Shown here one piece after another: positions 3,001 to 46,831 of a stretch of DNA of 49,362 nucleotides (position 1 is the stretch's first letter; the number at the start of each line of letters is the position of its first letter). The stretch is from Raillietiella orientalis. Lineage: Eukaryota. The notes beneath the pieces were generated by a model. The model did no database searches, had not been told where the DNA came from, and saw nothing but the letters and a program-made list of their open reading frames with translations. The DNA lies in NCBI GenBank assembly GCA_036172245.1, contig JAYWIR010000018.1, positions 3,658,001 to 3,707,362 on the forward strand, written 5' to 3'. Both the position numbers and the translations under genes were made by a program.

Positions 3001-3393
3001 AAAGATGTGATCCGGCGACCTTTCCATCTCAGGTACGCCGACCATCAAGTTGAAAGCGCGTACTGACGCGCACATCTCGATGGCCGACGTGCGCTCCCTC
3101 GGGCAGTTCCAATCGTCAGAGAGCAGGTGGACGTTGAAGTCCTCTGCGACGAGGTGCGCCACTTGGGAGCCGAAGTTATTGAGCCAGTGGCATTTCACTT
3201 CCTCGAAGAGCGCAATTCTTTCTTCGAAGTAGCGAGAGCCACTCAGAGCGTAGATGTTTGTTACGACAAGATCGATGGACTCGGACCACTTGACAACAAG
3301 TTGGCCCACGCGTCCGTCGTCGTCAAAACGAACACTACGTACCGCTTCCGCCATTTTTCCTCTTACGAGGAACGCGACGCCGCACGTGTATGG
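1..3393 (-). mobile_element. LINE B1, 3' part (ORF2); 3' UTR lies left of the window
   Basis: Minus-strand ORF pieces give APE (TCGVAFLVRG..VTNIYA..LSDH), RT (VDLHKAFD, GIRQGDSLSPLLF, YADD) and C-terminal CARC..HLVMDC. The closest relative in the window is the ORF2 starting at 40106. Confidence 0.9.
6..3393 (-). pseudogene. B1 ORF2 (APE-RT-CCHC), N-terminus deleted, several frameshifts
   Basis: Split across ORFs 2575-3582, 1962-2225, 1253-2053 and 6-1283; natural stop at 6-8. Confidence 0.9.
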
Positions 3394-3948
3394 GTCCCGG
3401 TATCGGGAGACAGCTTCATACAGGTAGGGAAGAAAGGAAAGAGGAGGATGCTCGTCAAGGAGCAAGAAACCCCTCTTATCCTGGAAGGTGAAGAGCGAGA
3501 AGGCGAGAAGATGGAGGTAGCGCAAAAAGGCGCGGAAGAACAAATAGCCGAAGCCACTCCGGTGTCGCAGGAAACCCTGCAATCTACTGAAGAGTTGGCA
3601 TCACTGGCTAATGAAGTCCTAGAGGTGCAGAGCGGTAACCAGCAAGAGAAAATCTTGCAGAAGATCTGCAATGCACAGCAGAAGGTCAACCAGGTTGTGG
3701 AGGTCACCCAGCGCGAAAAGCTAGAGGAACAGCTTCTCGACGTAAAGGCGAACTTCTGCGCCAAGGTCGAGATAGAGACGCTATCTCGAAAACTGATCGC
3801 GCGGGCCGAACACTCGACGGAGGAGGCGGAAGTAACCGACCTCACCGGGACAGAGAGTGACGCCGGCAGCGAGAAGCCCGCTGCTTCTTCATTGTCTGGA
3901 AGAGCACGCTCTCTCAGACAGAAGAAGCTCAGGAAGGCCAAGAAATAG
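3394..3948 (+). pseudogene. A1 ORF1 C-terminal fragment
   Basis: Matches the C-terminus of A ORF1 (...ARSLRQKKLRKAKK*) at 8962-9588 and in ORF 19050-20981. Confidence 0.9.
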
Positions 3949-3961
3949 GTCTTCCCCTTTT

Positions 3962-6900
3962 ATGGCCTCTTCCCTATCGACCGCCAGGAGGCTGAACATC
4001 GCCTCCTGGAATGTAAACGGTATGGTCGACCAGGGAAAAAGAAAAAGGATTGTGCGGACCATCGCACAACAAGACATAGTATGCCTGCAGGAGACCCACA
4101 AGATGGGTCTCGAGATTAGTCAGCAAATGGAACGGCGATTCAACGGGCAGATTTTCGTCAGCGAGGGAGAACGGAACACGCAGGGTGTGGCGGTCCTAAT
4201 CAAGAACAACTTGGCCCCCACTATTCTGGAAGTGTTCTGTCCCCAACCCGGACGAATCATCGGCGTGCGACTGGCCTGGTCCGCTACTGTTCACCTCATC
4301 CTGGTGAACGTGTACGGGCTGCACAGGCTAAAACATCGTTGTGCGGAGGCGCTGCATGCAGCACTCCGTGAAAAGGTTGCTTCCAAGGACGTCGTGATTG
4401 TTGCTGGCGATCTCAACATATTGAATGAGATCACTCACCCCGAAGACGCCAGAGGAAGAACGGCGTATCGGCGGTTATCCGACGAGTTCGGACTGGTGTG
4501 GCGAACTGAAAGTCACAAGCTGATCGATCACCTCCTGCACAGCACTGAACTTGGAAATCGCATCCAGGGTTTTCAAGACATTATGACCACGGTGTCCGAC
4601 CACCCCCTGGTGCGGTTTTCCCTAAGAACGGAGAATCCTCGGCGGAGGCAAGGCACCAGGGCGGCGCTCATCAGCATGCCCGCCTGGTTCGAAACCCATC
4701 CCGGACATCAGGCTGTCCTGGAGACGATTCTGAAGGCAACAACAATCCGAAGAGTCGCCGACTGGGACAGGCTGAAACACAGGATACACCTGTTTGCAAA
4801 CATGCAGTTCGGAGATAGGCGATTGAGGCAGGAGGCGTACCGGGAGCTGAAAATCAGAGATCGCTCACTCTCAAAGTACTTCGATCAGTACGAGAGTCGG
4901 TACGTCTTCAAGAACATAAGAGGGGAAGTCGGCGTGCTGGAGAAGAGAAATCAGGCAGCAGATATCTTCTGCATCCAGTACGATGGTCAAAAGCGACAGT
5001 CGTCTGAGGACATCGTGGATGCCTTTCAAAGGCATTACACGAAACACTTTAGGCGACAACATCTCTGTCGCTCTAGTCAACAGGCCTTTCTGAGCTACCT
5101 GGAGAAGAGGACCGACGATCGCCAGCGGAACAGACTGGAGGAGGAATTCTCCGAAGACGAGGTGAAGACTGCGTTTGGTCAACTACGCAAGGACGTGGCA
5201 GCGGGCCCTGACAGCGTACCCATCACTCACTATCACCGGTACCTGCATGCCTACCTGCGTTTGTTCCACCAGTTGACCCTCTGCATCCGTGAAGAAGGAA
5301 GACTTCCACAGTCCTTCTACGAGGGTCGGATGAGATTGATGCCAAAAAGAGGCGACCTCACGCAGGTCGCTCAATGGAGGCCAATCTCGATCCTGAACTC
5401 GGATGCCAAGTGGTTGGCGAAGATCTGGTCCAACCGCTTAGGCAAGGTCATATCGAGGCTCATATCTCCGGTACAAACGTGTGCAGTCCCTGGACGTTAC
5501 ATGTCCGACAATGTCAAGTGTGCCCAGGCCACTGTCGGACTCAGCCGATACGTCGGCGAGAATCTGGCGATGGTTACTGACATGGAGAAGGCTTTCGACT
5601 CCATCGACCATGGGATGCTGCTGAAGGTTCTGGAGAAGCTAGGCCTCCGGAACACTTCAGCAACTTCGTGAGGGTGGTACTCCAGAACCAGTACTGCCGT
5701 ATCAAGATCAACGGCCAGGAGACAGCAGCAATCAAGATGGAACGGGGAGTCCGGCAGGGCGACTCGCTAAGTCCGATGCTGTTCGTCATCTATATGGAGG
5801 CGTTGTCGTCCTTTATCGAGAAGAGCGGACGACTAAGCGGGATTACCATCGATAGCCAGCGTCTTACCCATCTGGCATACGCCGATGATCTACTCTTCTT
5901 CATCAAGGGAGAGAAAAATCAGCGTGCGTTTCTGGATGTGGTGGACCTGATGGAACAGGGCTTGGGCTTAAAAATCAATTCCCAGAAGAGCCAGCTTTTG
6001 CCCGTCGGAATCCTGGATCTCTCCACTCTAACGGGTAGTGGATTCCGTACGGTGGACACGGCCAAGTACCTGGGAGTCTACATCGGCGACGGCTCTGCGT
6101 CGAAGCTGCTGTGGAAGGAAATCCTGGGGAAAACGGCCAAGGAAGCAGCCAAGTACACCCGAACGGACCTTGGAATGAAGCGAAAGGCCAACATATGGAA
6201 CGGAGTACTCCTTCCAAAAGTGCTCTTCGGGGCGGCCTTCGCGAGGATGAACAAGGAAACCACGAGGGAGTTCGACAAGCTGCAGAGAAAAACACTGTGG
6301 GGCCACTATCGCCCAAGAGTCCGACTAAAACCCCTGTGTCGTCCCAGGGAAGAAGGCGGTTCCGGGATGAAGTCGCTTGAACACTCCATGGAAATCATGG
6401 ATGCGCGACACATCCTGGACATTGCCACTCACTGGGATGACTGGCCGTATGCGGCGCACAGGGCCTACGCGTTGTTGTTGAACAACTCGAAAGGCCTGAT
6501 GACTGCGCTGCTAGGCCGAGCAGGCGTATGGAAAAAAATCGACCCAACCTGGACGAGGAAGCAACGGCTGGTGCGAAAGCACAAAATCAAGATCGTGCCG
6601 AGAAGTAGGGAACTCTGGCAGGACGAGTTTATCCTGGTGATCCCTTGGATGCTTCCTGTCCCGCCGGATACGAGTAGCTGGATCCACCAGCGGTCCAGAG
6701 TTACCCTTCAACGAATCCAGGAGTGGAAACGTGGAGGGTACCTACATCACACTCGTATACTTAGGTATATAGAGATGATGTTAGGAAGGTTTACCCACAT
6801 GACTCGCGAAGTGTAGTTCAACCACAACGACTTTGCGTGGTTCAGGGTAACCAAAACAAACCTACGAAGACTAATTCAAGAAGAAGACAGTGATATCAGT

Positions 6901-7476
6901 GCCCTCCAGGAAGCCGCCGATCGCCACGGGAGTGACCGGGTCAACCTGTTAGCGATTGGCACGACGCTCTGGAGGAGTGACCTTCCGCCGGGCACCCAGG
7001 ATGACCTCCTGATGTTTTATCATGGAGGAATCCAGAGTGGGTTCGGATTGCAGCACTACACCGGAAGAAGGGAAGATCGAGACTTCACAGCATGTGGAGA
7101 CATCGACACGAGACTTCACGTTTAGACGTGTCCCTTATTGCTGCATGACTGGCTGATCCTGAAAAGGATCATCGGACTCACCACCAGGTCCGTAATGGAG
7201 ATCCTCGCCGGGATGTTTCAGGGGGATGGTAATGTTCCCTGTTACAATCTTATGGTGAGGACGACCATCGCCCTCTTCATCACCGCCACACTTGTGCGGT
7301 GGTGGAAAATGAGGAAAGCCAGAAGAGCCGCACCACCGATGGAGATCCTACAAGGGCTCCTGAAGAGGGAAATCGGCATTAGAAACTGTGGGAAAATCCA
7401 AGCCTGGACGTACCGATTCATCCTGAAGAGGATAGAAGACGACGCCCGGGACCAAACAGTAGGAAACCCACCATGA
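3962..7476 (+). pseudogene. A1 ORF2 (APE-RT-CCHC), disrupted
   Basis: ASWNVNG, CLQET, NVYG, GDLN, SDH (APE); DMEKAFD, GVRQGDSLSP, YADD (RT); CTAC..H..C. Frameshift near 5650; stops at 6814-6816 and near 7122. Confidence 0.92.
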
Positions 7477-7581
7477 GTGCAGAACTTGTGATAACCCAAG
7501 GACTTCATAGTGGTAAAAAAAAAGTGCTAATGGTATGGATGAGATTGTAGTGTGAATGTTTTTATAGAAAAATTTTAGAAA

Positions 7582-7619
7582 AATAAATTTACCCCACCCC
7601 TCGTGGGACTTGGGGAAAA
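7582..7619 (+). terminator. A 3' terminus: AATAAA + GC hairpin + A4
   Basis: aataaa tttacccca cccctcgtggg act tggggaaaa; the same terminus occurs at 12307-12344, 15383-15420(-) and 46832-46868(-). Confidence 0.65.
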
Positions 7620-7631
7620 CTGCCGAGTCGG
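7620..7631 (+). repeat. 12-bp target-site spacer between tandem A1 and A2 (ctgccgagtcgg)
   Basis: Exact reverse complement of the TSD ccgactcggcag that flanks A3 (15371-15382 and 21037-21048). Confidence 0.9.
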
Positions 7632-7800
7632 TGAACTTGCTTCGCGGCTCAAAGTATTGTGCGCTTGACAACTTAACCAGTTAATTGTGCTCGTGTGTGC
7701 CCGGAGAGGGGAAGTTTCCAGACGAAACTACAAAAGAAGCGCCGAGGAGATCGCGGCGGAAGACCTGCAGTGGTCCCGTGCAGCAAGACCAGCTGCCAGG

Positions 7801-9588
7801 ATGCAGGCACCTGGAGGAGGAGTGAAGAGACCGTCGTCCCCCATGGAAGCCATGGAGGTAACGTGCGGCAACGGCGAGGCGGTGGCAGGCATGCCGAGGA
7901 TCGCGCCCGCGGCGGGCTTTGCTGCGCCGGCGGCGGCGATGCCAAGGGTCGTGCCCGCGGCGACGAGGGCGGAGGTCGTGCCCGCGGCGGCGACGCCGAG
8001 GATCGTGCCCGCGGCGGGGAAGGTCGCGCCTGCGGCGGCGATGCCGAGGGTGCCGCCCGCGGCGGCAACGGTGGCGACGTCGAGGGTTGCGCTCGCGGCG
8101 GCGGCGTCCCAGGCAGGACCCGCGGGCGTCCACGCGGTTCAGGGCGAGACGCCATCTTGTTCGGCTGCGGCGGCGCAGCCCTTTTCCTATGCGTCGGTGG
8201 CGGCTGGACAAGCGAGTGTCCACCCACCAAGAAAATTCGGGAAGCCGCTATGCGGTAAAGTCCAAAAGGTGGATCGGCCGATCGTGGAGTTAGGGCCGAA
8301 TGTGAAGCCCATCATTTTCAAGACTGGGCTGATCAAGTTCAATAATATCAGGGAGGTGTATCTGTCCCTCGATAAGACGGATATCAATTTTGATCGCATA
8401 CAGGCGATCATACCAGCAAACAACGGGTTCACAGTCTTCACAGACTGTGAAAATATTAGAGAGCGATTGATCCAGAAGGGGATCAATATACAAGGGAGGA
8501 TGGTTTGTGGTATTGGCGAAATGCCATACACAACCGTCTTTCTGAACGGCATCTCCATCCTCACACCGCAACTAACGGTGTGGAACTTTTTGGAGCAGTA
8601 CGGGGAAGTTCTAGACTTTGAATTCCAGAACTTCTCAGGAAATATATTTTATGGCGAAATGATCGCCAAAATGAAGTTGAAAGAGGCAGCTGTGATCCCT
8701 GGATTAGCCGTTCTTGACGAACAATCCCAGGGAGTGAACGTGCGTTACCGGCAACAACCGATATTCTGCACCGGGTGCAAGTAGTTCGGCAACAGGGCAG
8801 GCGCATGCCCAACGTGTCGTTGTTTCCGCTGCGGCAAAGTAGGACATCAAGTCCGAAACTGCCCGCAGCCGGAGGTTTGCTCCTCCTGCAAGAAACACGA
8901 GCACGCCAAATGGAGCTGTCCGGAGTTTGCAAACTGCAGAAGGATTCGAGGTCTCTCTCCCGTGAGAGAGAGAAACACCAAGGAGGCGGAACAGCCTCAG
9001 AAGGCAGGAAGGCCGAAGAAGGAGAAAGAAGCCGTCCCGGTATCGGAAGACGGCTTCATACAGGTAGGGAAGAAAGGAAAGAGGAGGATGCTCGTCAAGG
9101 AGCAAGAAACCCCTCTTATCCTACAAGGTGAAGAGCAAGAAGGCGAGAAGATGAAGGTAGCGCAGGAAGGCGCGGAAGAAGAAATAGCCGAAGCCACTCC
9201 GGTGTCGCAGGAGGCCCTGCAATCTACGGAGGAGTTGGCACCACTGGCTAATGAAGTTCTAGAGGTGCAGAGCGGTCCCCAGCAAGAGAAAATCTTGCAG
9301 AAGATCTGCAATGCACAGGAGAAGGTCAACCAGGTTGTGAAGGTCACCGAGCGCGAGAAGCTAGAGGGACAGCTTCTCGACATGAAGGCGCACTTCTGCG
9401 CCAAGGTCCAGATAAAAACGCTATCTCGAAAATTGATCGCGCGGGCCGAACACTCGCCGGAGGAGCCGGAAGTGACCGACCTCACCGGAAAGGAGAGTGA
9501 CTCCGGCAGCAAGAAGCCCGCTGCATCTTCGTCGTCTGGAAGAGCACGCTCTCTCAGACAGAAGAAGCTCAGGAAGGCCAAGAAATAG
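7801..9588 (+). pseudogene. A2 ORF1 (Ala/Pro repeats, three CCHC knuckles, acidic coiled-coil-like tail), in-frame stop at 8782-8784
   Basis: ORFs 7687-8784 and 8962-9588 share a frame; CAG>TAG relative to intact A3 ORF1. Confidence 0.88.
7885..8125 (+). repeat. GC-rich coding minisatellite (about 27-bp units, xPAAAxxxV) in A ORF1
   Basis: Repeated gtgcccgcggcg.. units; the equivalent at about 20510-20780(-) has one extra VVPAATTAE unit. Confidence 0.8.
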
Positions 9589-9601
9589 GTCTTCCCCTTT
9601 T

Positions 9602-12200
9602 ATGGCCTCTTCCCTATCGAACACCAAGAGGCTGAACATCGCCTCCTGGAATGTAGACGGTGCTGTCGACCAGGGAAAAAGAAAAAGGATTCTGCGGAAC
9701 ATCGGACAACAAGACATAGAGTTCCTGCAGGAGACCCCAAAGATGGGTCTCGAGATTAGTCAGCAAATTGAACGGCGATTCAACAGGCAGATGTTCGTCA
9801 GCGAGGGAGAACGGAACACGCAGGGTGTGGCGGTACTAATCAAGAACCACTTGGCCCCCACTATTCTGGAAGTGTTGTGTCACCAACCCGGACGAATCAT
9901 CGGCGTGCGACTGGCCTGGTCCGCTACTGTTCACCTCATCCTGGTGAACGTATACGGGCCTCACAGGCTGAAACATCGTTGTGCGGAGGCGCTGCATGCA
10001 GCACTCCGTGAAGAGGTCGCCTCCAAGGACGTCGTGATTGCTGCTGGCGATCTCAACATATTGGATGAGATCACTCATTCCCAAGACGCCAGAGGAAGGA
10101 CGGCGTATCGGCGGCTATCCGACGAGTTCGGACTGGTGTGGCGAACAGCAAGTCACAAGCCGATCGATCACGTCCTCCACAGCACCGAACTAGGGAATCG
10201 CATCCAGGGTTTTCGAGACACATTGACCACTCTGTCCGATCACCCGTTGGTGCGGTTTTCCTTAAGAACGGAGAATCCTCGGAGGAGGCAAGGCACCAAT
10301 GCGGCGCTCTTCAGCATGCCCGCCTGGTTCGAAACCCATCCCGGACATCAGGAGGTCCTGGAGGCGATTCTGAAGGCAACAACAAACCGAAAAGTCGCCG
10401 ACTGGGACAGCCTGAAACACAGGATACACCTGTTTGGAAACATGCAGTTCGGGGACACGAGCTTGAGGCAGGAGGCGTACCGGGAGCTGAACATCCAAGA
10501 TCGCTCACTCTCAAAGTACTTCGATCAGTACGAAAGTCGGTACGTCTTTTAAAGAACATAAAAGGGGAAGTCGGCGTGCTGGATAAGAGAAATCTGGCAA
10601 CAGATATCTTCTGCATCCAGTACGACGGTCAAGTGCGACAGTCGTCCGAAGATATCGTGGATGCCTTTCACATGCATTACACGAATCCCTTCAGGCGACA
10701 ACATGTCTTTTGCTTTAGTCAACAAGCCTTTCTGAGCTATCTCGAGAAGAGGACCGACGACCTCCAGCGGAACAGACTAAACGAGGAATTCTCCGAAGAC
10801 GAGGTGAAGACTGCTTTTGGACAACTGCGTAAGGATGTGGCGGCGGGCCCTGACAGTGTACCTATCACGCACTATCGGCGGTACCTGCATGCCTACGTGC
10901 GTTTGTTTTACCAGTTGACCCTCTGCATCCGCGAAGAAGGAAGACTTCCACAGTCCTTCTACGAGAGTCGGATAAAATTGTTGCCAAAAGGAGGCGACTC
11001 ATGCAGGTTGCTCAATTGAGGCCAATCTCGATCCTGAACTCGGATGCCAAGTGGTTGGCGAAGATCTGGTCCAACCGCTTCGGCAAGTTCATGTCGAGGC
11101 TCATCTCTCCGGTCCAAACGTGTGCAGTCCCTGGACGTCACATGTCGGACAATGTCAAGTGTGCCCAGGCCACCGTCGGACTCAGCCGATACGTCTGCGA
11201 GAACCTGGCGCTGGTGTTCACTGACATGGAGAAGGCTTTCGACTCCATCGACCATGGGTTGCTGCTGAAGGTTCTGGAGAAGCTAGGCCTTCCGGAAGAC
11301 TTCAGCAACTTCGTGAGGGTAGTACTCCAGAACCAGTACTGCCGAATCAAAATCAACGGCCAGGAGACGGCAGCAATTCGGATGGAACTGGGAGTCCGGC
11401 AGGGCGATTCGCTAAGTCCGATGCTGTTCGTCATCTACATGGAGGCGTTGTCGTCCTTCATCGAGAAGAGCGGACGACTGCAAGGCATAACAATCGATGG
11501 CCAGCCTCTTATCCATCTGGCATACGCTGATGATCTACTCTTCTTTATCATGGGAGAGAGAAATCAACGAGCGTTTCTGGATGTGGTAGACCTGATTGAT
11601 CAAGGCCTGGGTCTAAAGATCAACGCCCAGAAAAGCCAGCTCTTGCCCGTTGGAATCCTCGATCTCTCCGCTCTAGCGAAGAGAGGATTCCGAACGGTGG
11701 ACAAGGCCAAGTACCTGGGTGTCTACATTGGCGACGTCTCCGCGTCGAAGCTATTGTGGACCGAGATCCTAGGGAAAACGGCCAAGGAAGCAGCCAAGTA
11801 CACCCGAACGGACCTTGGAATGAAGCGAAAGGCCAACATATGGAACGGAGTACTCCTTTCAAAAGTGGTCTTCGGGGCGGCCTTCGCGAGGATGAACAAG
11901 GACACCACGAGATAGTTCGAAAAGCTGCAACGCAAAACACTGTGGGGCCACTACCGCCCAAGAGTACGTCTCAAACCCCTGTGTCGTCCCAGGGAAGAAG
12001 GCGGTTCCGGGATAAAGTCGCTTGAACACTCCATGGAAATCATGGATACGCGACACTTCCTGGACATGGCCACTCCCTGTTATCTGTTCATAGGGAAATC
12101 GGCATTAGGAATTGCGGAAAAATCCAAGCCTGGACGTTCCGATTCATCCTGAAGAGGATAGAGGACGAGCCCGGGACCAAACATCTGGAAACCCACCATT
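9602..12200 (+). pseudogene. A2 ORF2, frameshifts, stop and about 935-bp deletion near 12076
   Basis: ORFs 9497-10552, 10138-11019 and 11001-11915; sequence jumps from the A1 equivalent of 6430 to 7366. Confidence 0.9.
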
Positions 12201-12344
12201 ATTGCAGAACTTGTGAGAACCCAAGGACTTCATAGTGGTAAAAAAAAAGTTCTAATGGTATGGATGAGATTGTAGTGTGAATGTTTTTATAGAAAAATTT
12301 TAGAAAAATAAATTTACCCCACCCCTCGTGGGACTTGGGGAAAA

Positions 12345-13606
12345 CTATCTTGTTGAGGAGGATGCAGCTGGTTGCTGCGTGTTTTGAGGCAACGCAACGC
12401 TGCTTTCGTTGGATTTTTTCGACGGACCTGCAGACGCCTTCGTGAGTTTATTGACTGAAGCCTCCGAGACGGACAGAGCGCTCAAGGAGACGGTTACCAC
12501 GCAATTTTATTTGGCGTGTCCTCCTTTCGCCTTGTTGCACGGAGCGACTGGTTTTACTGATCCCATTTCGCGAGTAGCGTTTCCGTGATCAGCTACTGGT
12601 ACAGTAACGGTACGCGCGGAGCCCTCTCGCCCTTTTTTGAATGGCTACCCTGCCGCGCGATTGCCCTTTTGGGGCTTTGATGCTGAGGGAGCCAACATTG
12701 AGACTGCGCTCGGGCCTTTTTCATCTTCGGCCTTTCGCGAGTTTCCCTGTTTTTTTTTTTTTTTGAGGATGCGGTTTTCTCTTCTGCGCACTCTTTGGCA
12801 CGCCGGAGTCTAGCAGCCTCCTTTTTTTTCTTTATGTCCGGGCACTTTCTAATTTCGTGCCCGGACTCCTTACAGTAGCGGCACTTCGGGGAAGGGCATT
12901 TTTATCCCTGATGCCCTTCTTTGCCGCATTGCTCGCACGCGCGAGTTTTGCCAACGAACCACAGGGGAACGACCGTGCCGTTGATCTGTAGCGTGGCAGG
13001 CAGCGTGCGGCGGTTAGGAACGGTTACCCTAACCGCAGCAAATCCTGTGTGTACGGAAGGGAATTTCCTGTAGGAACTCTCCTTCCTCCACACCGCATGA
13101 ACGGTTGCGAATTTCGCCAACGCATCCATCAACTGTTTGTCATTGATCTCCGCCTCTACGTCCGAGAGAACAACGACAAAAGACTCGACCATCGCGGAAG
13201 GAAAAACTTTCTTTCCGCGGATGGACAAAGCAGTGCAGAGGAGCCTCTGCACAAGTGCAGCCTGCTTGCATCGGACCTTCACATAGCCCAATGCTGGAAT
13301 AGGCATGAGTGCTACGAGGTCCTCTTCTCGCATTCCCACACGGTAGAGTTCGTCCGCGAACTCCTCCTCAGCGTTATATACCCCACTTACGTTATAGCAG
13401 AGAGCAGGCTTGTAGCCCTGGGCTACATAGGCTTGCATCTCCGCCTGGTCGGGGAGGCATCCTTGTACGGCTGCAGAGGCAGCCACGTCCGCAAAGCTCC
13501 TGGCTGGTGGCGCGGGGCTCGCACACGTTGTCGCCATCACTCCAGCTGCGGAAAGTTCCTGAACCACAGGCTCGAGGTCTTCCACGTTGCGTTGTTCACT
13601 GCTCAT
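12345..13606 (-). pseudogene. B1 ORF1 (MSSEQRNVED...; CEQCGKEGH and CRYCKESGH knuckles), stop at 12902, truncated by A
   Basis: Clear homology to the ORF1 at 14138 (KVRCKQAALVQRLL, KFATVHAVW, TRACEQCGKEGH). Confidence 0.85.
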
Positions 13607-13689
13607 CCTTAGGGATGTGCAGTGGGATGCACAAACACAACCAAACAGCGGAACCACGGAGCGACACGAAATCACGTCCGACTCGTATG
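12345..13689 (-). mobile_element. LINE B1, 5' part (5' UTR + ORF1), interrupted by the A dimer
   Basis: 5' end cgagtcggacgtgatttc resembles the B2 5' end at 38106; ORF1 is homologous to C and B2 ORF1. Pairing it with the ORF2 at 1-3393 is inferred from strand, order and B-type similarity. Confidence 0.8.
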
Positions 13690-14022
13690 AAGGCAAACGT
13701 TAAAATCGCCTGCAGCCAGATGGGCATTCCGCACGCCTGCCTCGGTCAACCAGTCGCGACGGAGGGCAAGGAAAAATTCTTTCCTGGCCCTCCTCTTCGT
13801 CAGGTCCGCTCCGCTCGGGGCGTAAACGTTCGTGACGATCAGGTCAATCGAGACGGACCAACTGAGAGTCAGCTGGCCAACATGACCGTGATCGTCGAAC
13901 CGCACGCCCCGAGCCGCGGCCTCGACGGCTGGATGAAGCAGGTAGGCGACACCGCAACTTTTCGCTCTCCCACACCTGTACCATAGCCGCCCTTCGGAGA
14001 TCCGTTCGATCTCTTGCGCTCG
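13690..14022 (-). mobile_element. LINE D2-type ORF2 APE fragment (D2a) trapped between C1 and B1
   Basis: Encodes AQEIERIS..RCG..GQLTLSWS..TNVYAPSG..AHLAAGDFNV; homologous to 45135-45470. Confidence 0.88.
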
Positions 14023-14137
14023 TACAGTGCACACGTGTTTCCGCGTCTATCCGCGCCAACGATCGGGCAACTTTGTGCCTGCGTTTTCGCTCGCACTTGT
14101 GTGTTCCTGTGCAATCTGCCAAGTAGCATAGTGCAAC

Positions 14138-15382
14138 ATGGCCAGTACACAGGATAGTGTGGAGGAGCAAGCCACTGGATGCACTTCAGCTGCAGTTGAA
14201 GCGGCCGCATCCTCCGTAATGGTTTCCTCGCCCCCGGTGAGGAGTTACGCCGCCGTTACCTCCCAAAGACCAGGACCCTGCGATGCGGAGTTCCAGGCAT
14301 ATGTGTCATCAGGATACATGCCTGCACTCCGTTATAAGGTCAGAGGGCTCCTTAACGGGAAAATCGGTCGTGAGCTCAATGATGAGCTCGTCCGGATCGG
14401 CGTTGGCGAGAAGGAACTCCTTGCCATAATGCCTGCTGGCAGGATGGAATATACGAAGATTCGGTGCAAGAACGCAGCACTTGTGCAGCGCCTTCTCCGT
14501 ACGCCGTTGACCATCAATGGCAAGGAAGTCCTACCTACCGCGATGGACGACTCTTTTGTCGTTCAATTGTGCGACATCGAACTGAAAATCTCCGACCGCG
14601 ATGTTGTAAGCGTGCTGGCGAAGTTCGCCACCGTGCACGTTCTGTGGGGGAGGCCGAACCCTTTGAAGGATTTCTCCTCTGTCCACATAGGACAAGCCTC
14701 CAAGGGGATAACCGTCGCGAACAGGCGTGTTGTGCCTGAGCAGCTGCAGGTCAACGGCACGGTCGTTCACATGTGGTTCATAGGCCAGACTCGCGCGTGC
14801 GAGCAGTGCGGCAAGGAGGGACACCGAATAAAAGAGTGCCCCTCTCCAAAATGCCGCTATTGCAAAGATTCCATGCACGAAATCAAAAAGTGCCCGGTAC
14901 TTGCAAGAAAAAGAGCCGCAGTGGAAATTCGTCGGGTTCAAGAGACCACTGCACGAAAAACCGCAGCGGCAAATAAAAACCGTCGTCCGCAAAAACTCGG
15001 AAAAAACAACGAGCGATCCGCGGATGAAAAGAAAGCATCCCCGCCCGCAACGCCCCGAAAGAAGAAAGTCACGGCGGGGAAGCCAATTCAAAAGGGGCGC
15101 GAGGGTTTGACGCGTGCCGTGCCCTCCCTCGCTGCAGAACTCGCAGGCACCTCTCCGAGCCAGGAACCAGGAAATCTCCGTAACACCCTGGAGGGAAAGG
15201 TAGCAAGACAGGAAGATCGCAACAGTGCGAAGACTTCTTGCCCCGTTCCGTTGTCCCTTCCGAGTTCCGGACAGCCCCACTGCAGCGCAGGCCCCTCTGC
15301 AAAGGCTACGAAAGCCGTAAAAAGCAGCGTCGCGACGAGCAAAAGCACGCTGCATGCAGTCGCCCCATCGCCGACTCGGCAG
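14138..15382 (+). pseudogene. C1 ORF1, N-terminal part (two CCHC knuckles), interrupted by A3
   Basis: CEQCGKEGHRIKEC and CRYCKDSMHEIKKC. Removing A3 and one TSD joins ..SPTRQ to ERSDLPNVKKVTPLPP.. in frame, giving about 634 aa. Confidence 0.9.
15371..15382 (+). repeat. Left TSD of A3 (ccgactcggcag)
   Basis: Perfect 12-bp direct repeat with 21037-21048. Confidence 0.95.
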
Positions 15383-15524
15383 TTTTCCCCAAGTCCCACG
15401 AGGGGTGGGGTAAATTTATTTTTCTAAAATTTTTCTATAAAAACATTCACACTACAATCTCATCCATACCATTAGCACTTTTTTTTACCACTATGAAGTC
15501 CTTGGGTTCTCACAAGTTCTGCAC

Positions 15525-18500
15525 TCATGGTGGGTTTCCTGCTGTTTGGTCCCGGGCGTCGTCTTCAATCCTCTTCAGGATGAATCGGTTCGTCCAGGCT
15601 TGGAGTTTCCCAGAGTTTCTAATGCCGATTTATCTCTTCAGGAGCCCTTGTAGGATCTCCATCGGTGGTGCGGCTCTTCTGGCTTTCCTCATTTTCCACC
15701 ACCGCAAGTGTATGGCGGTGAAGAAGAGGGCGATGGTCGTCCTCACCATGGGATTGTAACAGGGAACATTACCATTCCCCTGAAACATCCCGGCGAAGAT
15801 CTCCATTACGGATCTGTTCGTAAGTCCGATGATCCTTTTCAGGATCAGCCAGTCATGCAGCAATGTGGGACACGTCAAGACGTGAAGTCTCGTGTCGATG
15901 TCTCCACATGCTGTGCAGTCTCGATCTTCCCTTCTTCCGGTGTAGTGCTGCAATCGGGACCCACTCTGGATTCCTCCATGATAAAACATCAGGAGGTCAT
16001 CCTGGGTGCCCGGCGGAAGGCCACTCCTCCACAGTGTCGTGCCAATCGCTAGCAGCTTGATCCGGTCACTCCCGTAGCGATCGGCGGCTTTCTGGAGGGC
16101 ACTGATATCACTGTCTTCTTCTTGAATTAGTCTTCGGAGGTTTCTTTTGGTTACCCTGGACCATGCAAAGTCGTTGTGGTTGAACCACACTTCGCGAGTC
16201 ATGTTGGTAAACCTTCCTAACATCATCTCTATATACCTAAGTATACGAGTGTGATGTAGGTACCCTCCTCGTTTCCACTCCTGGATTCGTTGAAGGGTAA
16301 CTCTGGACCGCTGGTGGATCCAGCTACTCGTGTCCGGCGGGACAGGAAGCATCCAAGGGATCACCAGGATAAACTCGTCCTGCCAGAGTTCCCTACTTCT
16401 CGGCACGATCTTGATTTTGTGCTTTCGCACCAGCCGTTGCTTCCTCGTCCAGGTTGGGTCGATTTTTTTCCATTCGCCTGCTCGGCCTAGCAGCGCAGTC
16501 ATCAGGCCTTTCGAGTTGTTCAACAACAACGCGTAGGCCCTGTGCGCCGCATACGGCCAGTCATCCCAGTGAGTGGCAATGTCCAGGATGTGTCGCGTAT
16601 CCATGATTTCTATGGAGTGTGCAAGCGACTTCATCCCGGAACCGCCTTCTTCCCTGGGACGACACAGGGGTTTTAGTCGGACTCTTGGGCGATAGTGGCC
16701 CCACAGTGTTTTTCTCTGCAGCTTGTCGAACTCCCTCGTGGTTTCCTTGTTCATCCTCGCGAAGGCCGCCCCGAAGAGCACTTTTGGAAGGAGTACTCCG
16801 TTCCATATGTTGGCCTTTCGCTTCATTCCAAGGTCCGTTCGGGTGTACTTGGCTGCTTCCTTGGCCGTTTTCCCTAGGATCTCGGTCCACAATAGCTTCG
16901 ACGCGGAGACGTCGCCAATGTAGACACCCAGGTACTTGGCCTTGTCCACCGTTCGGAATCCTCTCCCCGCTAGAGTGGAGAGATCGAGGATTCCAACGGG
17001 CAAGAGCTGGCTTTTCTGGGCGTTGATCTTTAGACCCAGGCCTTGATCCATCAGGTCTACCACATCCAGAAACGCTCGTTGATTTCTCTCTCCCTTGATA
17101 AAGAAGAGTAGATCATCAGCGTATGCCAGATGGGTAAGACGCTGGCCTTGCCATCGATTGTTATGCCTTGCAGTCGTCCGCTCTTCTCGATAAAAAACGA
17201 CAACGCCTCCATGTAGATGACGAACAGCATCGGACTTAGCGAATCGCCCTGCCGGACTCCCAGTTCCATTCGGATTGCTGCCGTCTCCTGGCCGTTGATT
17301 TTGATTCGGCATTACTGGTTCTGGAGTACCACCCTCACAAAGTTGCTGAAGTGTTCCGGAAGGCCAAGCTTCTCCAGAACCTTCAGCAGCATCCAATGGT
17401 CGATGGAGTCGAAAGCCTTCTCCATGTCAGTGAACACCAGCGCCAGGTTCTCGCCGACGTATCGGCTGATTCCGACGGTGGCCTGGGCACACTTGACACT
17501 GTCCGACATGTGACGTCCAGGGACTGTGCACGTTTGGACCGGAGAGATGAGCCTCGACATGACCTTGCCTAAGCGGTTGGACCAGATCTTCGCCAACCAC
17601 TTGGCATCCGATTTGAGGATCGAGATTGGCCTCCATTGAGCGACCTGCGTGAGGTCGCCTCCTTTTGGCAACAATTTCATCCGACTCTCGTAGAAGGACT
17701 GTGGAAGTCTTCCTTCTTCGCGGATTCAGAGGGTCAACTGGTGAAACAAACGCAGGTAGGCATGCAGGTACCGCTGATAGTGAGTGATGGGTTCGCTGTC
17801 AAGGCACGCTGCCACATCCTTGCGCAGTTGTCCAAACGCAGTCTTCACCTCGTCTTCGGAGAATTCCTTCTTTAGTCTGTTACGCTGGAGGTCGTCGGTC
17901 CTCTTCTCGAGATAGCTCAGAAAGGCTTGTTGACTAGAGCGACAGAGATGTTGTCGCCTGAAGGGATTCCTGTAATGCCTGTGAAAGACATCCACGATGT
18001 CCTCAGACGGCTGTCGCTTTTGACCGTCGTACTGGATGCAGAAGATATCTGTTGCCAGATTTCTCTTCTCCAGCACGCCGACTTTTCCTTTTATGTTCTT
18101 GAAGACGTACCGACTTTCGTACTTATCGAAGTACTTTGAAAGTGAGCGATCTTGGATGTTCTGCTCTTTGTTTGCCTCCTGCCTCAAGCTCGTGTCCCCG
18201 AACTGCATGTTTGCAAACAGGTGTATCCTGTGTTTCAGGCTGTCCTTTTCGGTTTGTTGTTGCCTTCAGAATCGCCTCCAGGACCTCCTGATGTCCGGGA
18301 TGGGTTTCGAACCAAACGACATGCTGATGAGCGCCGCCCTGGTGCCTTGCCTTTGTCGAGGATTCTCCGTTCTTAGGGAAAACCGCACCAGGGGGTGATC
18401 GGACACCGTAGTCATAGTGTCGCGAAACCCCTGGATGCGGTCCCCAAGTTCGGTGCTGTGCAGGACGTGATCGATTGGCTTGTGGCTTGCTGTTCGCCAG

Positions 18501-19036
18501 ACCAGTCCGAACTCCTCGGATAGCCGTCGATACGCCGTCCTTCCTCTGGCGTCTTCCGAATGAATGATCTCATCCAAGATGTTGAGATCGCCAGCAACTA
18601 TCACGACGTCCTTAGGGGCGACCTTTTGCCGGAGTGTTGCATGCAGCGCCTCCGCACAACGATGTTTTATCCTGTGCGGCCCGTACACGTTCACCAGGAT
18701 AAGGTGAACAGTCGCGGACCAGGCCAGTCGCACGCCGATGATTCGTCCGGGTTGGGGACAGAACACTTCCAGAATAGTGGGGGCTAAGTTGTTCTTTATT
18801 AGCACCGCCACACCCTTCGTGTTCCGTTCTCCTTCGTTGACGAACATCTGCCCGTTGAATCGCTGTTCTATTCGCTGGCTTATCTCGAGACCCATCCTGT
18901 GGGTCTCCTGCAGGCACACGATGTCTTGTTGTGCGATGGTCCGCACAATCCTTCTTCTTTTTCCCTGGTCGACCACACCGTTTACGTTCCAGGAGGCGAT
19001 GTTTATCCTCCTGGCGGTCGATAGGGAAGAGGCCAT
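15525..19036 (-). pseudogene. A3 ORF2 (APE-RT-CCHC), multiple small indels and stops
   Basis: ORFs 18266-19141, 17726-18208, 17312-17680, 17057-17269 and 15630-17396. Confidence 0.9.
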
Positions 19037-19049
19037 AAAAGGGGAAGAC

Positions 19050-20864
19050 CTATTTTTTGGCCTTCCTGAGCTTCTTCTGTCTGAGAGAGCGTGCTCTTCC
19101 AGACAATGAAGAAGCAGCGGGCTTCTCGCTGCCGGCGTCACTCTCCGTACCTGTGAGGTCGGTTACTTCCGCCTCCTCCGTCGAGTGTTCCGCCTGCGCG
19201 ATCAATTTTCGAGATAGCGCCTCTATCTCGACCTTGGCGCAGAAGTTCGCCTTCACGTCGAGAAGCTGTTTTTCTAACTTCTCGCGTTCAGCGACCTCCA
19301 CCACCTGGTTGATGTTCTCTTGTGCAGTGCAGATCTTCTGCAAGATTTTCTCTTGCTGAGGACCGCTCTGCACCTCCATGATCTCCTCCGCTAGTGTTGC
19401 CAACTCCTCCGTAGTCTGCAGAGCCTCCTGCGACACTTTAGTGGCTTCCTGTCTCTCTTCCTTCGCGCCTTCCTGCGCTACCTCCATCTTCTCGCCTTCC
19501 TGCTCTGCTGCTTCCAGGATTTGAGGAGTTCCTTGCTCCTTGACGAGCATCCTCCTCTTTCCCTTCTTTCCCACTTCTATGAAGCCGTCCGCCGACACCG
19601 GGACAGCTTCTTTCACTTTTTTCTGCCTTCCTGCCTTCTGAGGCTGTTCGGCCTCCTTGATGTTTCTCTCTCTTACGGGAGAGAGACCTCGAATCCTTCT
19701 GCAGTTTTCAAACTCCGGACAGCTCCATTTCGCATGTCCATGTTTATTGCAGAAGGAGCACACCTCCGGCTGCGGGCAGTTTCGGACTTGATGTCCTACT
19801 TTGCCGCAGCGGAAACAACGACACGTTGGGCAAGAGCCGGCCCTGTGACCGAACTGCTTGCACCCGGTGCAGAATACCGGTTGTTGCCGGTAACGCACAT
19901 TCACTCCCTGGGATTGTTCGTCAATAACGGCCAATCCAGGGATCACCGCTCCCTCCCTCAACTTCATCTTGGCGATCATGTCGCCAGAAAATATGTTTCC
20001 AGAGAACTTCTGGAAATCAAGGTCCAGAACTTCCCCAAACTGCTCCAAGTAATTCCACACCGCTAGTTGCGGTGTGAGGATGGAGATGCCGTTCAAAAAG
20101 ACGGTTGTGTATGGCATCTCGCCAATACCACAAACCATCCGTCCTTGTATATTGATCCCCTTCTGGATCAATCGCTCTCTAATGTTTTCACAGTCTGTAA
20201 AGACTGTGAACCCGTTGTTTGATGGAATGATCGCCTGAATGCGATCAAAGTCTATGTCCGTCTTGTCGAGGGACAAATAGACCTCCCTGATGTTATTAAA
20301 TTTTATTAGCCCCGTCTTGAAGATAATGGGCTTCACGTTGGGGCCTATTTCAACTATTGGTCGGTCCACTTTTAGTACTTTTCCGCTAAGCGGCTTACCG
20401 AATTTCCTAGGTGGGTGGACACTCGCCTGTCCAGCCGCCACCGACGCATAAGAAAAGGGCTGCGACGCCGCAGCCGAACAAGATGGCGTCGCTCCCTGCA
20501 CCGCGTGGTCGCCCGCGGGTCCCGCCTGGGACGCCACCGCCGCGGGCGCAAACCTCGACGTTGCCGCCGTTACCGCCGCGGGCGGCACCCTCGGCATCGC
20601 CGCCGCAGGCGCGACCTTCCCCGCCGCGGGCACGATCCTCGGCGTCGCCGCCGCGGGCACGACCTCCGCCGTCGTCGCCGCGGGCACGACCTCCGCCGTC
20701 GTCGCCGCGGGCACGACCCTTGGCATCGCCGCCGCCGGCGCAGCAAAGCCCGCCGCGGGCGCGATCCTCGGCATGCCTGCCACCGCCTCGCCGTTGCCGC
20801 ACGTTACCTCCATGGCTTCCATGGGGGACGACGGTCTCTCCACTCCTCTTCTAGGTGCCTGCAT
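19050..20864 (-). CDS. A3 ORF1 gag-like nucleic-acid-binding protein, intact (about 604 aa from the first ATG)
   Basis: Open frame with CTGCKQFGHRAGSC, CFRCGKVGHQVRNC and CSFCNKHGHAKWSC knuckles; the start codon choice is uncertain. Confidence 0.85.
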   Translation of the reverse strand: MQAPRRGVERPSSPMEAMEVTCGNGEAVAGMPRIAPAAGFAAPAAAMPRVVPAATTAEVVPAATTAEVVPAAATPRIVPAAGKVAPAAAMPRVPPAAVTAATSRFAPAAVASQAGPAGDHAVQGATPSCSAAASQPFSYASVAAGQASVHPPRKFGKPLSGKVLKVDRPIVEIGPNVKPIIFKTGLIKFNNIREVYLSLDKTDIDFDRIQAIIPSNNGFTVFTDCENIRERLIQKGINIQGRMVCGIGEMPYTTVFLNGISILTPQLAVWNYLEQFGEVLDLDFQKFSGNIFSGDMIAKMKLREGAVIPGLAVIDEQSQGVNVRYRQQPVFCTGCKQFGHRAGSCPTCRCFRCGKVGHQVRNCPQPEVCSFCNKHGHAKWSCPEFENCRRIRGLSPVRERNIKEAEQPQKAGRQKKVKEAVPVSADGFIEVGKKGKRRMLVKEQGTPQILEAAEQEGEKMEVAQEGAKEERQEATKVSQEALQTTEELATLAEEIMEVQSGPQQEKILQKICTAQENINQVVEVAEREKLEKQLLDVKANFCAKVEIEALSRKLIAQAEHSTEEAEVTDLTGTESDAGSEKPAASSLSGRARSLRQKKLRKAKK

Positions 20865-21036
20865 CCTAGCAGCTGGTCTTGCTGCACGGGACCACTGCAG
20901 GTCTTTTGCCGCGATCTCCTCGCCGCTTCTTTTTTTTTGTTTCTTCTGGAAAACTTCCTTTTTCCGGGCACACACGAGCACAATGAACTGATTAAGTTGT
21001 CAAGCGCACAATACTTCGAGCCGCGGAGCAAGTTCA

Positions 21037-21048
21037 CCGACTCGGCAG
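21037..21048 (+). repeat. Right TSD of A3 (ccgactcggcag)
   Basis: Direct repeat of 15371-15382. Confidence 0.95.
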
Positions 21049-21708
21049 GAGCGGAGCGATCTCCCGAATGTCAAGAAGGTGACTCCGTTGCCGCCTTTTA
21101 AAGGCGTAGCGAAAGCAACGCCCCCAGAGAACGCAGCGAAAATCCCAGAGGTTTCCGCAACTACTGTCGCGGAAGCTTCCGAAAATCGCGAAGGCGAATG
21201 GAAGGTTGTGGAGAGGAGGAAAGAAAAATCTCCAAAGAAAGCTCCGCAACCTCCATCCCTGAGCTCTTCCAAAGGAAAAAGCAGTCGCGCGAATACGAAA
21301 ACACGCGCGGCTTGTGACTCTTCCAAGGAAAAAGCCAACGCCTTCAACGCGTGCAAGTCTGCTTCTGTGACCGCCGAGAAGACCATTCCGGTGCAATCGG
21401 ACGGATGCAAGCGCACGTCGATCGTGCGAGCATCAGACTTCGCAAAGGAGTCCGATAACGCAGCGGAACGACGCGTAACTCGCGCGGGAGCGAGCGCCCG
21501 CAGGGCTGAAGCCCTGAGGCGTGACACACTCGCCGCGGAACGGCGAGTGCTCACCCCGGAACCCACAGGTTCTGCACCCGGGGAGGAGCACCCGATTACG
21601 TGCAGCACAGTTGAGGCCGGTGGCGACCGCGCCCTCCAGCCCGTCGTGCTGCTTACTGCCCGCTCGCCGGGTGAGGCGAGCACCACGGCCTCGCTTTCCC
21701 AGCCGTGA
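21049..21708 (+). pseudogene. C1 ORF1, C-terminal part
   Basis: In frame with 14138-15382; ends in TGA overlapping the ORF2 ATG; tail (CST..GGDR.LQP.VLL) matches B2 ORF1. Confidence 0.88.
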
Positions 21709-24700
21709 TGAGGGCAATCGCGTCTTCTCGTCGTGTTGCCGTAACGTCTTGGAACGTCAACGGGCTCCAACACGAGGAGAAGAGGCGACTAGTGGCTGAC
21801 GCTCTGCGGGCCTTCGACTTGACGCTCCTGCAGGAGATTCACAGCATCTCCGGAGAGCAGGCTGCCGAAATCGAACGGCGCGCGGGCGGAACGCTAGTTT
21901 ATAGGTGCGGCGTTGCACGTACGTGCGGCGTCGCTTTCCTCGTGCGAGGAACTTTGGCGGGAGCGGTGCGCAGCGTTCGTTTCGACACGGAAGGCCGAGT
22001 GGGACAGCTTGTACTCAAGTGGTCCGACTCGATCGACCTTGTCGTAACCAACGTGTACGCGCCGAGCGGTGCTGGACGATGGGCCGAAAGGATTGAGTTC
22101 TTCGGTACACTTCAAAGCCAGTGGCTCACTCGATCTAACCCTACTGTGGCCCATCTCATTGCGGGGGACTTTAACGTCCACCTGCTTTCCGAGAATAGAT
22201 CCCACAAAAGGGAAAAGTTGCTAGCGGAAGAGATGTGCGCGTCCGTGCACGCGTGCAACTTGTTCGCTAGCGACCCTGTTATGGCAGCAACGCCGGACCA
22301 CGTATACCTTGATGAACACTTGCTCTGTCGAGTGGGTCGGAGAGGTCCCGTGCCGTCCGTGCTTTCCGACCACAACAGGCTCGAGTTCGAGTTGCTCCCG
22401 CCAGGCAAGGGGCCTCCAAACTGTTTTTGGAGGATGCCGGCAGACTGGCTAAGCCACTTGGAGGCGGCTGAGCATCTTCGCCAGTACCTCCTCGGCTTTG
22501 CCATAAGTGAGCTCGAGGACTGGGACGATCTGAAAAGATCGGTCCGCGAGTTCTGCTGCCGGTTTCCCTTGCACCAGCTTCCGCGCGGCTTCGGAGAGGG
22601 CGTAGACAACAGCAGAGATTTTCTGCAGGCCCGCTCCTTTTCCAGGCGCGCGGACGTTGGTCGATTATCCGAGTACAAGGCCAAGGCCGAGCGCCAGGTC
22701 TGGCAGTCAGGGGCGACAGTTCTGCTCGACGACCAGGACCGGGAATGCTCGGCTCCAGCCGACGTGCGACGGATAGTCAGGCGCTATTACTCTTCTCTGT
22801 CTGCAGAGGCACCGACGGAACGCAGCCTCTCCCGGCTGCTTCTGCCGATTGATGCACCTGTTGTAGACGAGGAGGAACGCGCGCGTCTTGATGAGCCCTT
22901 CACGGCAGAGGAAATTTCCTCGGCCATCTCGGGGCTCAAGAGACGAAAAGCGCCAGGCGAAGATGGGCTCCCCGCGGAATTCTTTCAGTGTTTTGCGGCG
23001 GAGCTCATCCCTCTGGTGCTCCAGCTATCGTCGCTGATGCGAGACTCGCGCGATGTCCCCGCCTCGTTTCGCTCAGCGAAGGTGCGTCTACTGCCGAAAG
23101 GCGGAGATTTGCGCCAACTGAACAACTGGCGTCCGATCACATTAGTGAATTCGGACGTCAAGTTGTTCTCGAAACTTTGGGTGGCGCGGATGCGTAGGAT
23201 CGCGGAATCCTTGGTAAGTCCGGAGCAGACGAACGCTGTTCCTGGGCGGTCCATGGACGCGAATCTCTTGTTCATCCGCACATGGCTGCAATTGCAGCAT
23301 CGTGTGGCGGTGGATCGTCGTGCGGAAGCGACGCCTTCGATCTCTCACCGACGGAGGCGCGGGACGCAAAGGGAGACACCGGGAGCCTTGGCGGTTGCAG
23401 TCGATCTGCACAAAGCTTTCGATTGCGTGAACCAAAAGCTTCTTCTTGAGCTTTTGGAACGTCTGGGTCTTCCGGCATCCCTGTTGGCGTACTTGCGCTC
23501 CTGCTGGCGCCACGCGATTACATCCATTGTTTTCAGTGGCTGTCGCGTGTACGGCGTGCCGGTACGACGAGGAATGAGGCAGGGTGACAGCTTAAGCCCG
23601 CTGCTCTTCAGCATCTATTTTGAATTGGTGCTGGAGGCTTACAGGCTGACGCTAGCCAACCTGCCGAGCTCCTGTCCAGGTACGCCCGCCGTGGCAGCCT
23701 ATGCCGACGACCTGCTTCTCCTGTTGCCCATGTCCACCCCGACAGCGTCGCTTGAAGATTTCTTTGAGTTGATCCGTCGTGGTGCGGGCGTGAGCGTTAA
23801 CAGGAGTAAGTGTATGGTTGTTCCGGTTGGTGCGACGTGGGAGGGGCAGTCCGACTGGATCGACCTGGGGATCCCCACGGGCAGGTACCTCAGGTACCTT
23901 GGCGTGCCGTTGGGCGACTTCTGCGTCTCAGAAGCGTGGTCGGACTGCCTTCGGAAGGCAGAGCGTGCACTTGGCCCGTTTTCAGGAGGCGAGTTCGTCT
24001 TGCCGGAACGGGCCTGCATCTGGAACACCTTCGTTGCCCCCCTCCTCCGCCCCCTGTTTTTTGTTTGTCCACCCCCCAGGAAGTCAAAGTCTGGGCGCAG
24101 CGCCTTCTACGCAAAGCGTTGTGGGGCGCTGCAAGATCCCGTGTTAGACTTAAAGACTTGGTGGCGCCGCGTCAGGATGCAGGCTTGGGCATCCTCGACT
24201 TAAACAGCATCGAACTGCAGGTGCAGTTTCGCATGCTGCGGCTCTGTGCCAAGCTGTGGTGTACACCGTGGTGCTTACCCGCACGCCTTATACTGAGGCG
24301 CTGCACGGGAAGCGAGGGACTGCTTTCGTTGCTACCCCACTTTCGGCACACCAGAATAGGGTTTGGCTTCCCGCTGAGGCAGCTGTCCTCACTGCTGGAA
24401 GCCCGAAGCTGGATCTCCTGCCGCCCCATGAACATTAATGCATGGCGGCAGGAATCTTTTTCATCGTGGGCAGCTTCCGAAGGAACGCGCCCGGAAGATC
24501 TTCGACGCCTGCGACTTCTCCTCAGTCATCAAATGGACGAAGTCATGCAGGACAAGAAGTTGTCGGATCGTCTGGCCGCCACACCATCCGCCGTAGCGCT
24601 GTCTGCCCTCAGGGCAAGCAACGACGGTTGCCTACCGGCGGAATGGGAGTTCTCCTGCAAAATAGCGGGAGTCAGTAAGCTCCTCGGCAGCTGGACGACA

Positions 24701-25279
24701 AAGGAGCTGGTGCAAGCCGCCACACCTCGGAATCGGGCAAAGGGACTGCTTCGGTGGAGCGAACATTTAAGTGTGCCCCCCGGAGAGATAGTGGTTCCCC
24801 CCGTTTGTTTGGACAGCTCCGTGTTCCCCCTTAAGTGGAAACAAGATGTGCTGCTCTTTTTACATTGTGCATTTCACTGTAATAGGCAGCGAAGCATCGT
24901 TTCAGGGGGAGCTGCTTTGCCAAACTGTTTAAGGTGCGGAGAGATCGAGTCTTTTCCGCACCTTTTGTTGGACTGCGGTGACCTCCGGGAACTGTGGCGA
25001 AGGCTCACTTCGGCCATCATGCCACAAGGAGGCACTGCCATTGATGTGCTGCGGCGCTTCTTCAGCAGAAATGGACTTTCGGTTGGCGCGATTGTCGCAA
25101 CTATGTGTTGCGTTCGCGCCATCGTGAAGGCCCGCTACGCCCTGGAGTTGTCATCGCAGCGAAGGGAGGCTCACCTGCTTGCAGCTCAATTCATGGAGAA
25201 GGCTTCAAGGTGGTCTCATCTTCGTGACAAGGTGAATGAGGACATCACCGGCATACATCGCCGGTTTACACACCTTTGA
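21708..25279 (+). pseudogene. C1 ORF2 (APE-RT-CCHC), apparently a single frameshift near 24075
   Basis: ORFs 21705-24203 and 23810-25279; SWNVNG, QEIH, GDFN, SDH, DLHKAFD, QGDSLSP, YADD, CLRC..HLLLDC. Confidence 0.92.
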
Positions 25280-25604: not shown

Positions 25605-25634
25605 AATAAACGCCCCGGCGTGACCGGGTGAGAA
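25605..25634 (+). terminator. C 3' terminus: AATAAA + cccgg/ccggg hairpin
   Basis: aataaa cg c cccgg cgtga ccggg tg agaa; no poly(A). Confidence 0.65.
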
Positions 25635-46830: not shown

Positions 46831-46831
46831 G

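Follow-up and report, generated by a model that had tools for sequence, protein, structure and literature searches.

We suggest that the family A elements in this DNA are target-specific LINEs, which would insert by target-primed reverse transcription at a site in the ORF1 tail of other LINEs, those of B/C type; we put the probability of this reading at about 0.6. The case for target specificity comprises two independent host events and one tandem junction in a single 49-kb window, the window being the whole stretch of 49,362 nucleotides that was analysed. Each of the three independent A 3' junctions in the window lies either at the ORF1 site (two junctions) or at the same 12-mer (one), and none lies at an unrelated site. 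The initial annotation had named A 3' flanks unrelated to B/C ORF1, or falling at varied ORF1 positions, as the observation that would speak against targeting, and neither was seen among these three junctions in the window.

Nested LINE sequence makes up nearly the whole 49 kb on the element map, and the window therefore holds a cluster of nested LINE copies, with Exo_endo_phos, RVT_1 and CCHC zinc-knuckle ORF1 domains (Pfam) on both strands and a GC content of 52-62%. Self-comparison and translated comparison of the window resolved two LINE groups, namely family A and a host group whose members are B1, B2, C/C2, Da/Db, E, F/G and H. The ORF2s of the host group are 42-73% identical to one another in amino acids, and the ORF2 of family A is 25-34% identical to those of the host group; to judge from these comparisons, family A appears to be a lineage separate from the B/C/D/E/F group in which it sits. 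Protein relatives outside the window are remote, at 22-36% identity (4 matches for a piece of the A ORF2 and 75 for a D-type ORF2). One outside match, named Coccomyxa LINE-1 ORF2 by its source, is 27-28% identical to all of the window families and is no closer to them than are fish or fungal LINEs. No relatives of family A were found in metagenome or prokaryote-genome collections: the exact 26-nt pattern of the A 3' end had 0 matches in metagenome contigs and 0 in genome contigs, and none of the 176 pattern matches of the A RT protein to metagenome contigs was confirmed by tblastn.

Family A itself is an APE-type non-LTR retrotransposon, since its ORF2 carries APE and RT domains (Exo_endo_phos at E values of 5e-15 to 6e-18 and RVT_1 at 2e-29 in the copies), it lacks terminal repeats, it has a TSD and one of its copies is 5'-truncated. 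A terminal-repeat check of A3 found neither LTRs nor TIRs, the 12-nt TSD being its sole terminal repeat. The copies end in ...CCCCACCCCTCGTGGGACTTGGGGAAAA, which is a small terminal hairpin followed by four A, with C in place of the last A in A4. The ends of the copies had been described as near-identical, and closely alike they are, but at 93-94.5% they are not identical. All copies of family A in the window are degenerate, and A2 has also lost A positions of about 4484-5418 to an internal deletion (Table 1). The N-terminal part of the A ORF1 contains imperfect tandem repeats, GC-rich and coding, at 7875-8074 and 20513-20790, with a repeat spacing of 21-33 nt, mostly 27. The 3' ends of the host-group LINEs share the form AATAAACG-CCCGGCG...CCGGGT plus a few A (25600-25634, 27296-27340, 35815-35851 and 41828-41870), a short GC hairpin thus standing in place of a poly(A) tail; the terminal hairpin of A differs from it.

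Table 1. Family A copies, their host elements and the junction features, in coordinates of the window.
Feature	Position	Strand	Description
B1 3' part (ORF2)	1..3393	-	Begins, in C coordinates, about 870 nt downstream of the site
A1	3394..7619	+	Truncated 5' end (about A position 1446) abuts the B1 3' part; followed head-to-tail by A2
12-mer between A1 3' end and A2 5' end	7620..7631	+	CTGCCGAGTCGG; identical to the A3 TSD in C
A2	7632..12344	+	Full-length 5' end; 3' end GGGGAAAA at 12344
B1 5' part	12345..13690	-	5' UTR and degenerate ORF1
B1 ORF1-tail flank at A2 3' end	12345..12406	-	TSD-equivalent 12345-12356; 14-nt block 12393-12406
C 5' part	14014..15382	+	ORF1 residues 1-417 (14132-15382) open; 14-nt block 15321-15334
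TSD copy at A3 3' junction	15371..15382	+	CCGACTCGGCAG in C sense
A3	15383..21036	-	Full-length family A element, 5,654 nt; degenerate; ORF1 with CCHC knuckle, APE, RT
Second TSD copy, A3 5' junction	21037..21048	+	Exact 12-nt repeat
C 3' part	21049..25634	+	ORF1 resumes in frame (220 aa, stop at 21708) and is followed by ORF2
B2 ORF1	39390..39452	+	12/14 version of the block and uninterrupted, diverged equivalent site
C2 5' part	45462..46830	+	Segmental duplicate of C, 94.8%
A4	46831..49362	-	Duplicate of the A3 locus, runs off the window; end reads GGGGAAAC

A3 is a clean antisense insertion with a 12-nt TSD into a then-intact C ORF1, since the 12-nt repeat is exact and the reading frame of C is open for 417 aa before the element and continues in frame for 220 aa after it. 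Measured from anchor to anchor, C minus one copy of the 12-mer spans 218 aa, and the uninterrupted B2 spans 655 nt, or 218.3 codons. C is itself bounded by a 5-nt TSD, ATCTC, at 14009-14013 and 25635-25639. Two contigs of one public run, which contained 0.15 of the words, bridge the A3 junctions (one the C/A junction and one the 5' junction), and among the 9 joints listed for contigs of that run on 14100-23000 (with 6 of 81 loose ends) none skips A3. No empty C allele was thus seen, a result that speaks neither for nor against empty sites. The insertion site lies in the basic, Ser/Pro-rich tail of ORF1 after the zinc knuckles, a region in which tblastn no longer aligns B1, B2 and C. In B1 the 3' part resumes ~870 nt further on, so the other side of the site has been deleted there.

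The 3' end of A2 meets B1 at 12344/12345, with the B1 flank starting at 12345, and the 3' end of A3 meets C at 15382/15383, directly after the ...CGGCAG of C that ends at 15382; at both places A lies antisense to the host ORF1. We aligned the B1 and C flanks gap-free, anchored on these junctions. Six of the 12 junction-adjacent bases match, as do 26/48 in the stretch between the junction and a 14-nt block, 13/14 in the block itself (49-62 nt from the junction) and 39/62 overall. Over 450 nt the two tails are 46.7% identical, with further 12/14 blocks at -291 to -293, -311 and -335, and with an 8-nt length difference between about -335 and -399. The initial annotation had these sequences and coordinates right, both for the junctions and for the block (12393-12406 and 15321-15334), and its account of a gap-free alignment, with the junction 48 nt past the block and only 6/12 matches in the TSD-equivalent, holds as well, the last figure being the chance level.

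Two controls bear on the register of this alignment. When the 450-nt tails were shifted against each other, 0 of 600 non-zero offsets gave a 14-mer with at least 12/14 matches, the best shifted register being 11/14, at 16 of the 600 offsets. When the whole window was scanned on both strands, only 2 of 98,602 positions reached 39/62 to the B1 flank, one being that flank and the other the C flank anchored on its junction; the C2 duplicate scored 38 and the next best segment 32. The inner stretches do not by themselves exceed chance, the 26/48 score being reached at 6 of 98,630 positions, 3 of them unrelated, and the 6/12 score at 4,782 of 98,702, so it is the 14-nt block and the blocks further out that carry the register. 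Given the junction-anchored match, the offset control and the whole-window control, the B1 and C junctions fall at the same aligned nucleotide, at the boundary between two codons in the frame of C. The very end of the Db ORF1 (31102-31115) also matches the 14-nt block at 12/14 positions, and the block with at most 2 mismatches has 5 matches in the window against 1.0 expected.

The third junction is that between A1 and A2, at 7619/7620, where the two copies are separated by a single 12-mer. The window has four exact copies of this 12-mer, all immediately adjoining an A end, and the sequence of B1 itself at the corresponding place is CTATCTTGTTGA. The spacer is thus of C type although the pair lies in B1, where a simple TSD model at the B1 site predicts otherwise, and we conclude that the 12-mer came with A. 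It could possibly have done so at the 5' end of the A2 RNA, if the transcript started in the upstream TSD of a donor seated in a site of C type; as a 3' tail left on the A1 template by read-through and gained by a template jump; or by conversion from another tandem. The tandem in turn may have arisen through a second A insertion at the 12-mer borne on the A2 5' end, or through a jump of the reverse transcriptase to a second A RNA carrying the 12-mer. Three head-to-tail junctions in which a LINE 3' end abuts a full-length 5' end are present in the window (A1-A2 at 7619/7620, Db-Da at 27295/27296 and E-H at about 35851/35852), and they are compatible with template jumping as well as with repeated insertion into a target that is regenerated.

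The travelling 12-mer raises the alternative that placement is governed by nucleic-acid pairing, such that A RNA carries a target-derived 12-mer at its 5' or 3' end, anneals at ORF1 sites or nicks and makes tandems by template jumps. The C-type 12-mer at the A2 5' end inside B1 must indeed have travelled with A RNA or DNA, the three head-to-tail junctions would fit template jumping, and co-transcribed target sequence is described in PMC4494074 as strengthening the target-specific integration of other LINEs. We nevertheless think this explanation doubtful: only 6/12 positions of the B1 flank match the 12-mer, and the 36 nt that follow are about 55% alike, so that a C-derived guide could not anneal in B1, and there is no extra 12-mer at the A2 3' junction.

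Whether a shared position reflects targeting by A depends on how many insertions took place, and when. The region 13691-17919 is 94.3% identical to 45139-49360 across the G/F fragment, the C ORF1 and A, so the C2/A4 junction (46830/46831) is a segmental duplicate of the C/A3 junction, and the number of independent host events in the window is two rather than three. The first duplicate carries B1, together with the A1-A2 pair that B1 contains, at 13690/13691; the second duplicate is uninterrupted there. Within the conserved ORF1 domain the identity between B1 and C is 69.5%, against about 47-54% close to the site, and their ORF1s share 49% of amino acids over 291 aa. The copies of family A are pairwise 90.8-94.0% identical, against 47-69% for their hosts, which makes the A insertions far younger than the B1/C split. 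We read the B1 and C insertions as separate, later and non-random events, and to that extent the earlier proposal of independent targeted events is supported, both by these copy and host identities and by the shared aligned nucleotide.

A second near-same-site case, in lineage B, parallels the family A pattern in the same nest and supports it. The 5' end of B1 (13690) adjoins G and that of B2 (about 38105) adjoins H, G and H being two different D-like LINEs; both 5' ends are full-length, and both elements are in sense orientation. Comparison of 13684-13700 and 38097-38110 with 45132-45150 places the two 5' ends at the GDFN codons of the endonuclease (APE) gene, with 9 nt between them when the hosts are aligned. 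B1-into-G and B2-into-H are independent events, since the site is empty and uninterrupted in F, whose identity to G is 94%, and G and H are only about 75% alike; the lineage B case is built on 5' junctions, the 3' junctions lying outside the window.

A single ancient insertion of A in the ancestor of B1 and C, followed by inheritance of the junction and by gene conversion that later made the A copies alike, would explain why position and orientation are identical in the two hosts, and A2 and A3, as inverted repeats only 3 kb apart, are well placed for conversion. We regard it as most improbable. The identity of the A copies (91-94%) drops abruptly at the junction to that of the hosts (47-69%), and an ORF1 broken by 5.6 kb would not propagate as two lineages; the C ORF1, moreover, is still open on both sides. 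B2, of the same host group, is empty, and the parallel insertion of B1 into G is demonstrably young, with F empty.

Copying of A at the DNA level from an occupied to an empty paralogous ORF1, by ectopic conversion or recombination in a homing-like manner and without retrotransposition, would suit a dense repeat nest with a segmental duplication, an internally deleted A2 and an A1 whose 5' side is truncated and deleted. The flank beside A2, however, is of B1 type and ~50% off C, with no conversion tract from a C donor visible, and the clean 12-nt TSD of A3 is typical of target-primed reverse transcription. Host identities of 47-69% are also far too low for homologous recombination, and we give this route very little credence. 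That two random nested insertions coincided by chance, in a LINE-only region where any insertion must hit some LINE, is a next to negligible possibility: from element length, the odds of matching both nucleotide and orientation within ~5.6 kb are put near 1 in 10,000, and a third A 3' end lies exactly before the same 12-mer.

If family A is indeed target-specific, the feature that it recognises would have to tolerate about 50% divergence on the retained side of the site. Such tolerance suggests that part of the feature is probably located on the side that B1 has lost, that the feature is a short degenerate motif around the nick, or both. On the far side of the site C has GAGCGGAGCG and B2 has GAGAGGAAGC, and in B1 that side (about 870 nt) is missing. 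The initial annotation had offered the distal 14-nt block, the deleted other side and structure as candidates for the recognised element, and we could support neither the block nor a shared structure. At the tandem junction 7619/7620 the 12-mer is followed by A 5' UTR and the block is absent at 49-62 nt downstream, which, if A1 was a separate insertion, would speak against the block as a required element; B2 keeps 12/14 of it (39390-39403) yet is empty, although the B2 site itself is diverged. That the B2 site is empty and diverged had been claimed from the start, and the ORF1 is uninterrupted near 39449-39452, so not every B/C-type tail has been hit. As for structure, the DNA fold z-scores of the 62-nt flanks in host sense are weak (-2.26 for B1, -1.69 for C and -0.82 for B2, with +0.70 for the A2 5' flank), and the predicted stems of the B1, C and B2 flanks stand in different registers.

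Two further ideas about the B1 flank were tried and rejected. The 12-mer of B1 is not a hypermutated version of the C 12-mer, for the 23 differences in 62 nt, classified by eye, comprise 11 transitions and 12 transversions, which is ordinary saturation. Nor did A carry the B1 flank along by 3' transduction, the sequence at 1-3393 being a B-type ORF2 (77.6% identical to B2 and 66% to F) and not a continuation of G.

We propose the following course for an insertion of family A, in outline. There would be one preferred site in the disordered C-terminal ORF1 tail of B/C-type LINEs, always entered antisense to the host. The host-sense strand at the A 3' junction ends in ...CAG in C and in ...TAG in B1, and a putative A endonuclease would nick this strand at the junction (CAG^GAG in C). 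Reverse transcription would then be primed on the 3' end of the A RNA, with its terminal hairpin and AAAA, presumably without base pairing to the primer, since the primer ends in AG and the A RNA in AAAA. A second nick would follow 12 nt away.

The homing of LINEs into other transposons is already known, and it is the tolerance of host divergence that is unusual here. Among the Tx1-clade target-specific LINEs described in PMC4494074, Tx1 is found in the Tx1D transposon, Tx1-Mar in Mariner-N4_AMi, Tx1-8_Crp and Tx1-4_AMi in LTR retrotransposons, and Tx1-9_AMi about 300 bp into Harbinger families. Family A resembles the Tx1 elements of that account in being an APE-type LINE that occupies a fixed position within other transposable elements belonging to related target families. 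The likeness is one of insertion behaviour, and the best outside proteins are only 22-36% identical. It differs from them in entering, antisense, the coding tail of the ORF1 of a different LINE lineage, and in the divergence of about 50% between its two targets at the site, compared with the about 90% identity given for the Harbinger targets. A limited literature search found no report of a LINE homing into the ORF1 of another LINE.

The layout of the cluster recalls the Zepp and ZeppL elements, L1-type LINEs reported to form nested clusters in green algae by targeting existing copies (PMC8226300, PMC3446292, PMC9940879). Common to both are an island of tens of kilobases, raised GC, and nested, often 5'-truncated, head-to-tail LINEs that insert into copies; the likeness is one of cluster layout, the Coccomyxa LINE-1-like protein being only 27-28% identical to the window families. 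The passages on Zepp in these sources (PMC8226300, PMC3446292, PMC9940879) describe no fixed nucleotide target, whereas the window has at least two distinct lineages, one of which hits the other at a fixed codon. With the rDNA-specific LINEs of R1/R2 type (PMC1919474, PMC5035012), family A shares a precise 3' junction at one site that needs no poly(A)/T-rich priming, and possibly a role for co-transcribed target sequence. The target of family A is a fast-evolving transposon gene, however, and not a conserved multicopy RNA gene. R2, moreover, has a restriction-like endonuclease, whereas family A has an APE domain.

Site-specific LINEs serve as models of safe-haven choice by retrotransposons, and they are candidates for tools that integrate DNA at chosen targets. 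If our reading of family A is correct, a LINE that homes to a fixed position in the gene of another LINE despite sequence divergence would represent a new class of target, and it could explain at the nucleotide level how LINE-only islands, such as the proposed centromeres of green algae, grow by nested insertion. More tentatively, and with rather little confidence, we raise the idea that the whole island is a self-targeting community of LINEs, in which each lineage homes to a fixed codon of another (A to the ORF1 tail and B to the GDFN codons) through recognition of something other than the flanks. Such a community would imply a read-out beyond the flanking sequence, for instance of the far side, of DNA shape or of an RNA guide, and would supply a concrete mechanism by which Zepp-like, possibly centromeric, LINE-only clusters build themselves.

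Two minor features of the nest may be added. The element into which C is set, antisense and within its N-terminal endonuclease region, is D-like; its right part (Da) is 94-97% identical to Db and its left part (G) only 73%, which suggests that the D-like element holding C may be a mosaic or a recombinant. The motif GGAGATC occurs 27 times in the window against 8.9 expected, a count inflated by repeat copies, and it is found near several of the insertion junctions.
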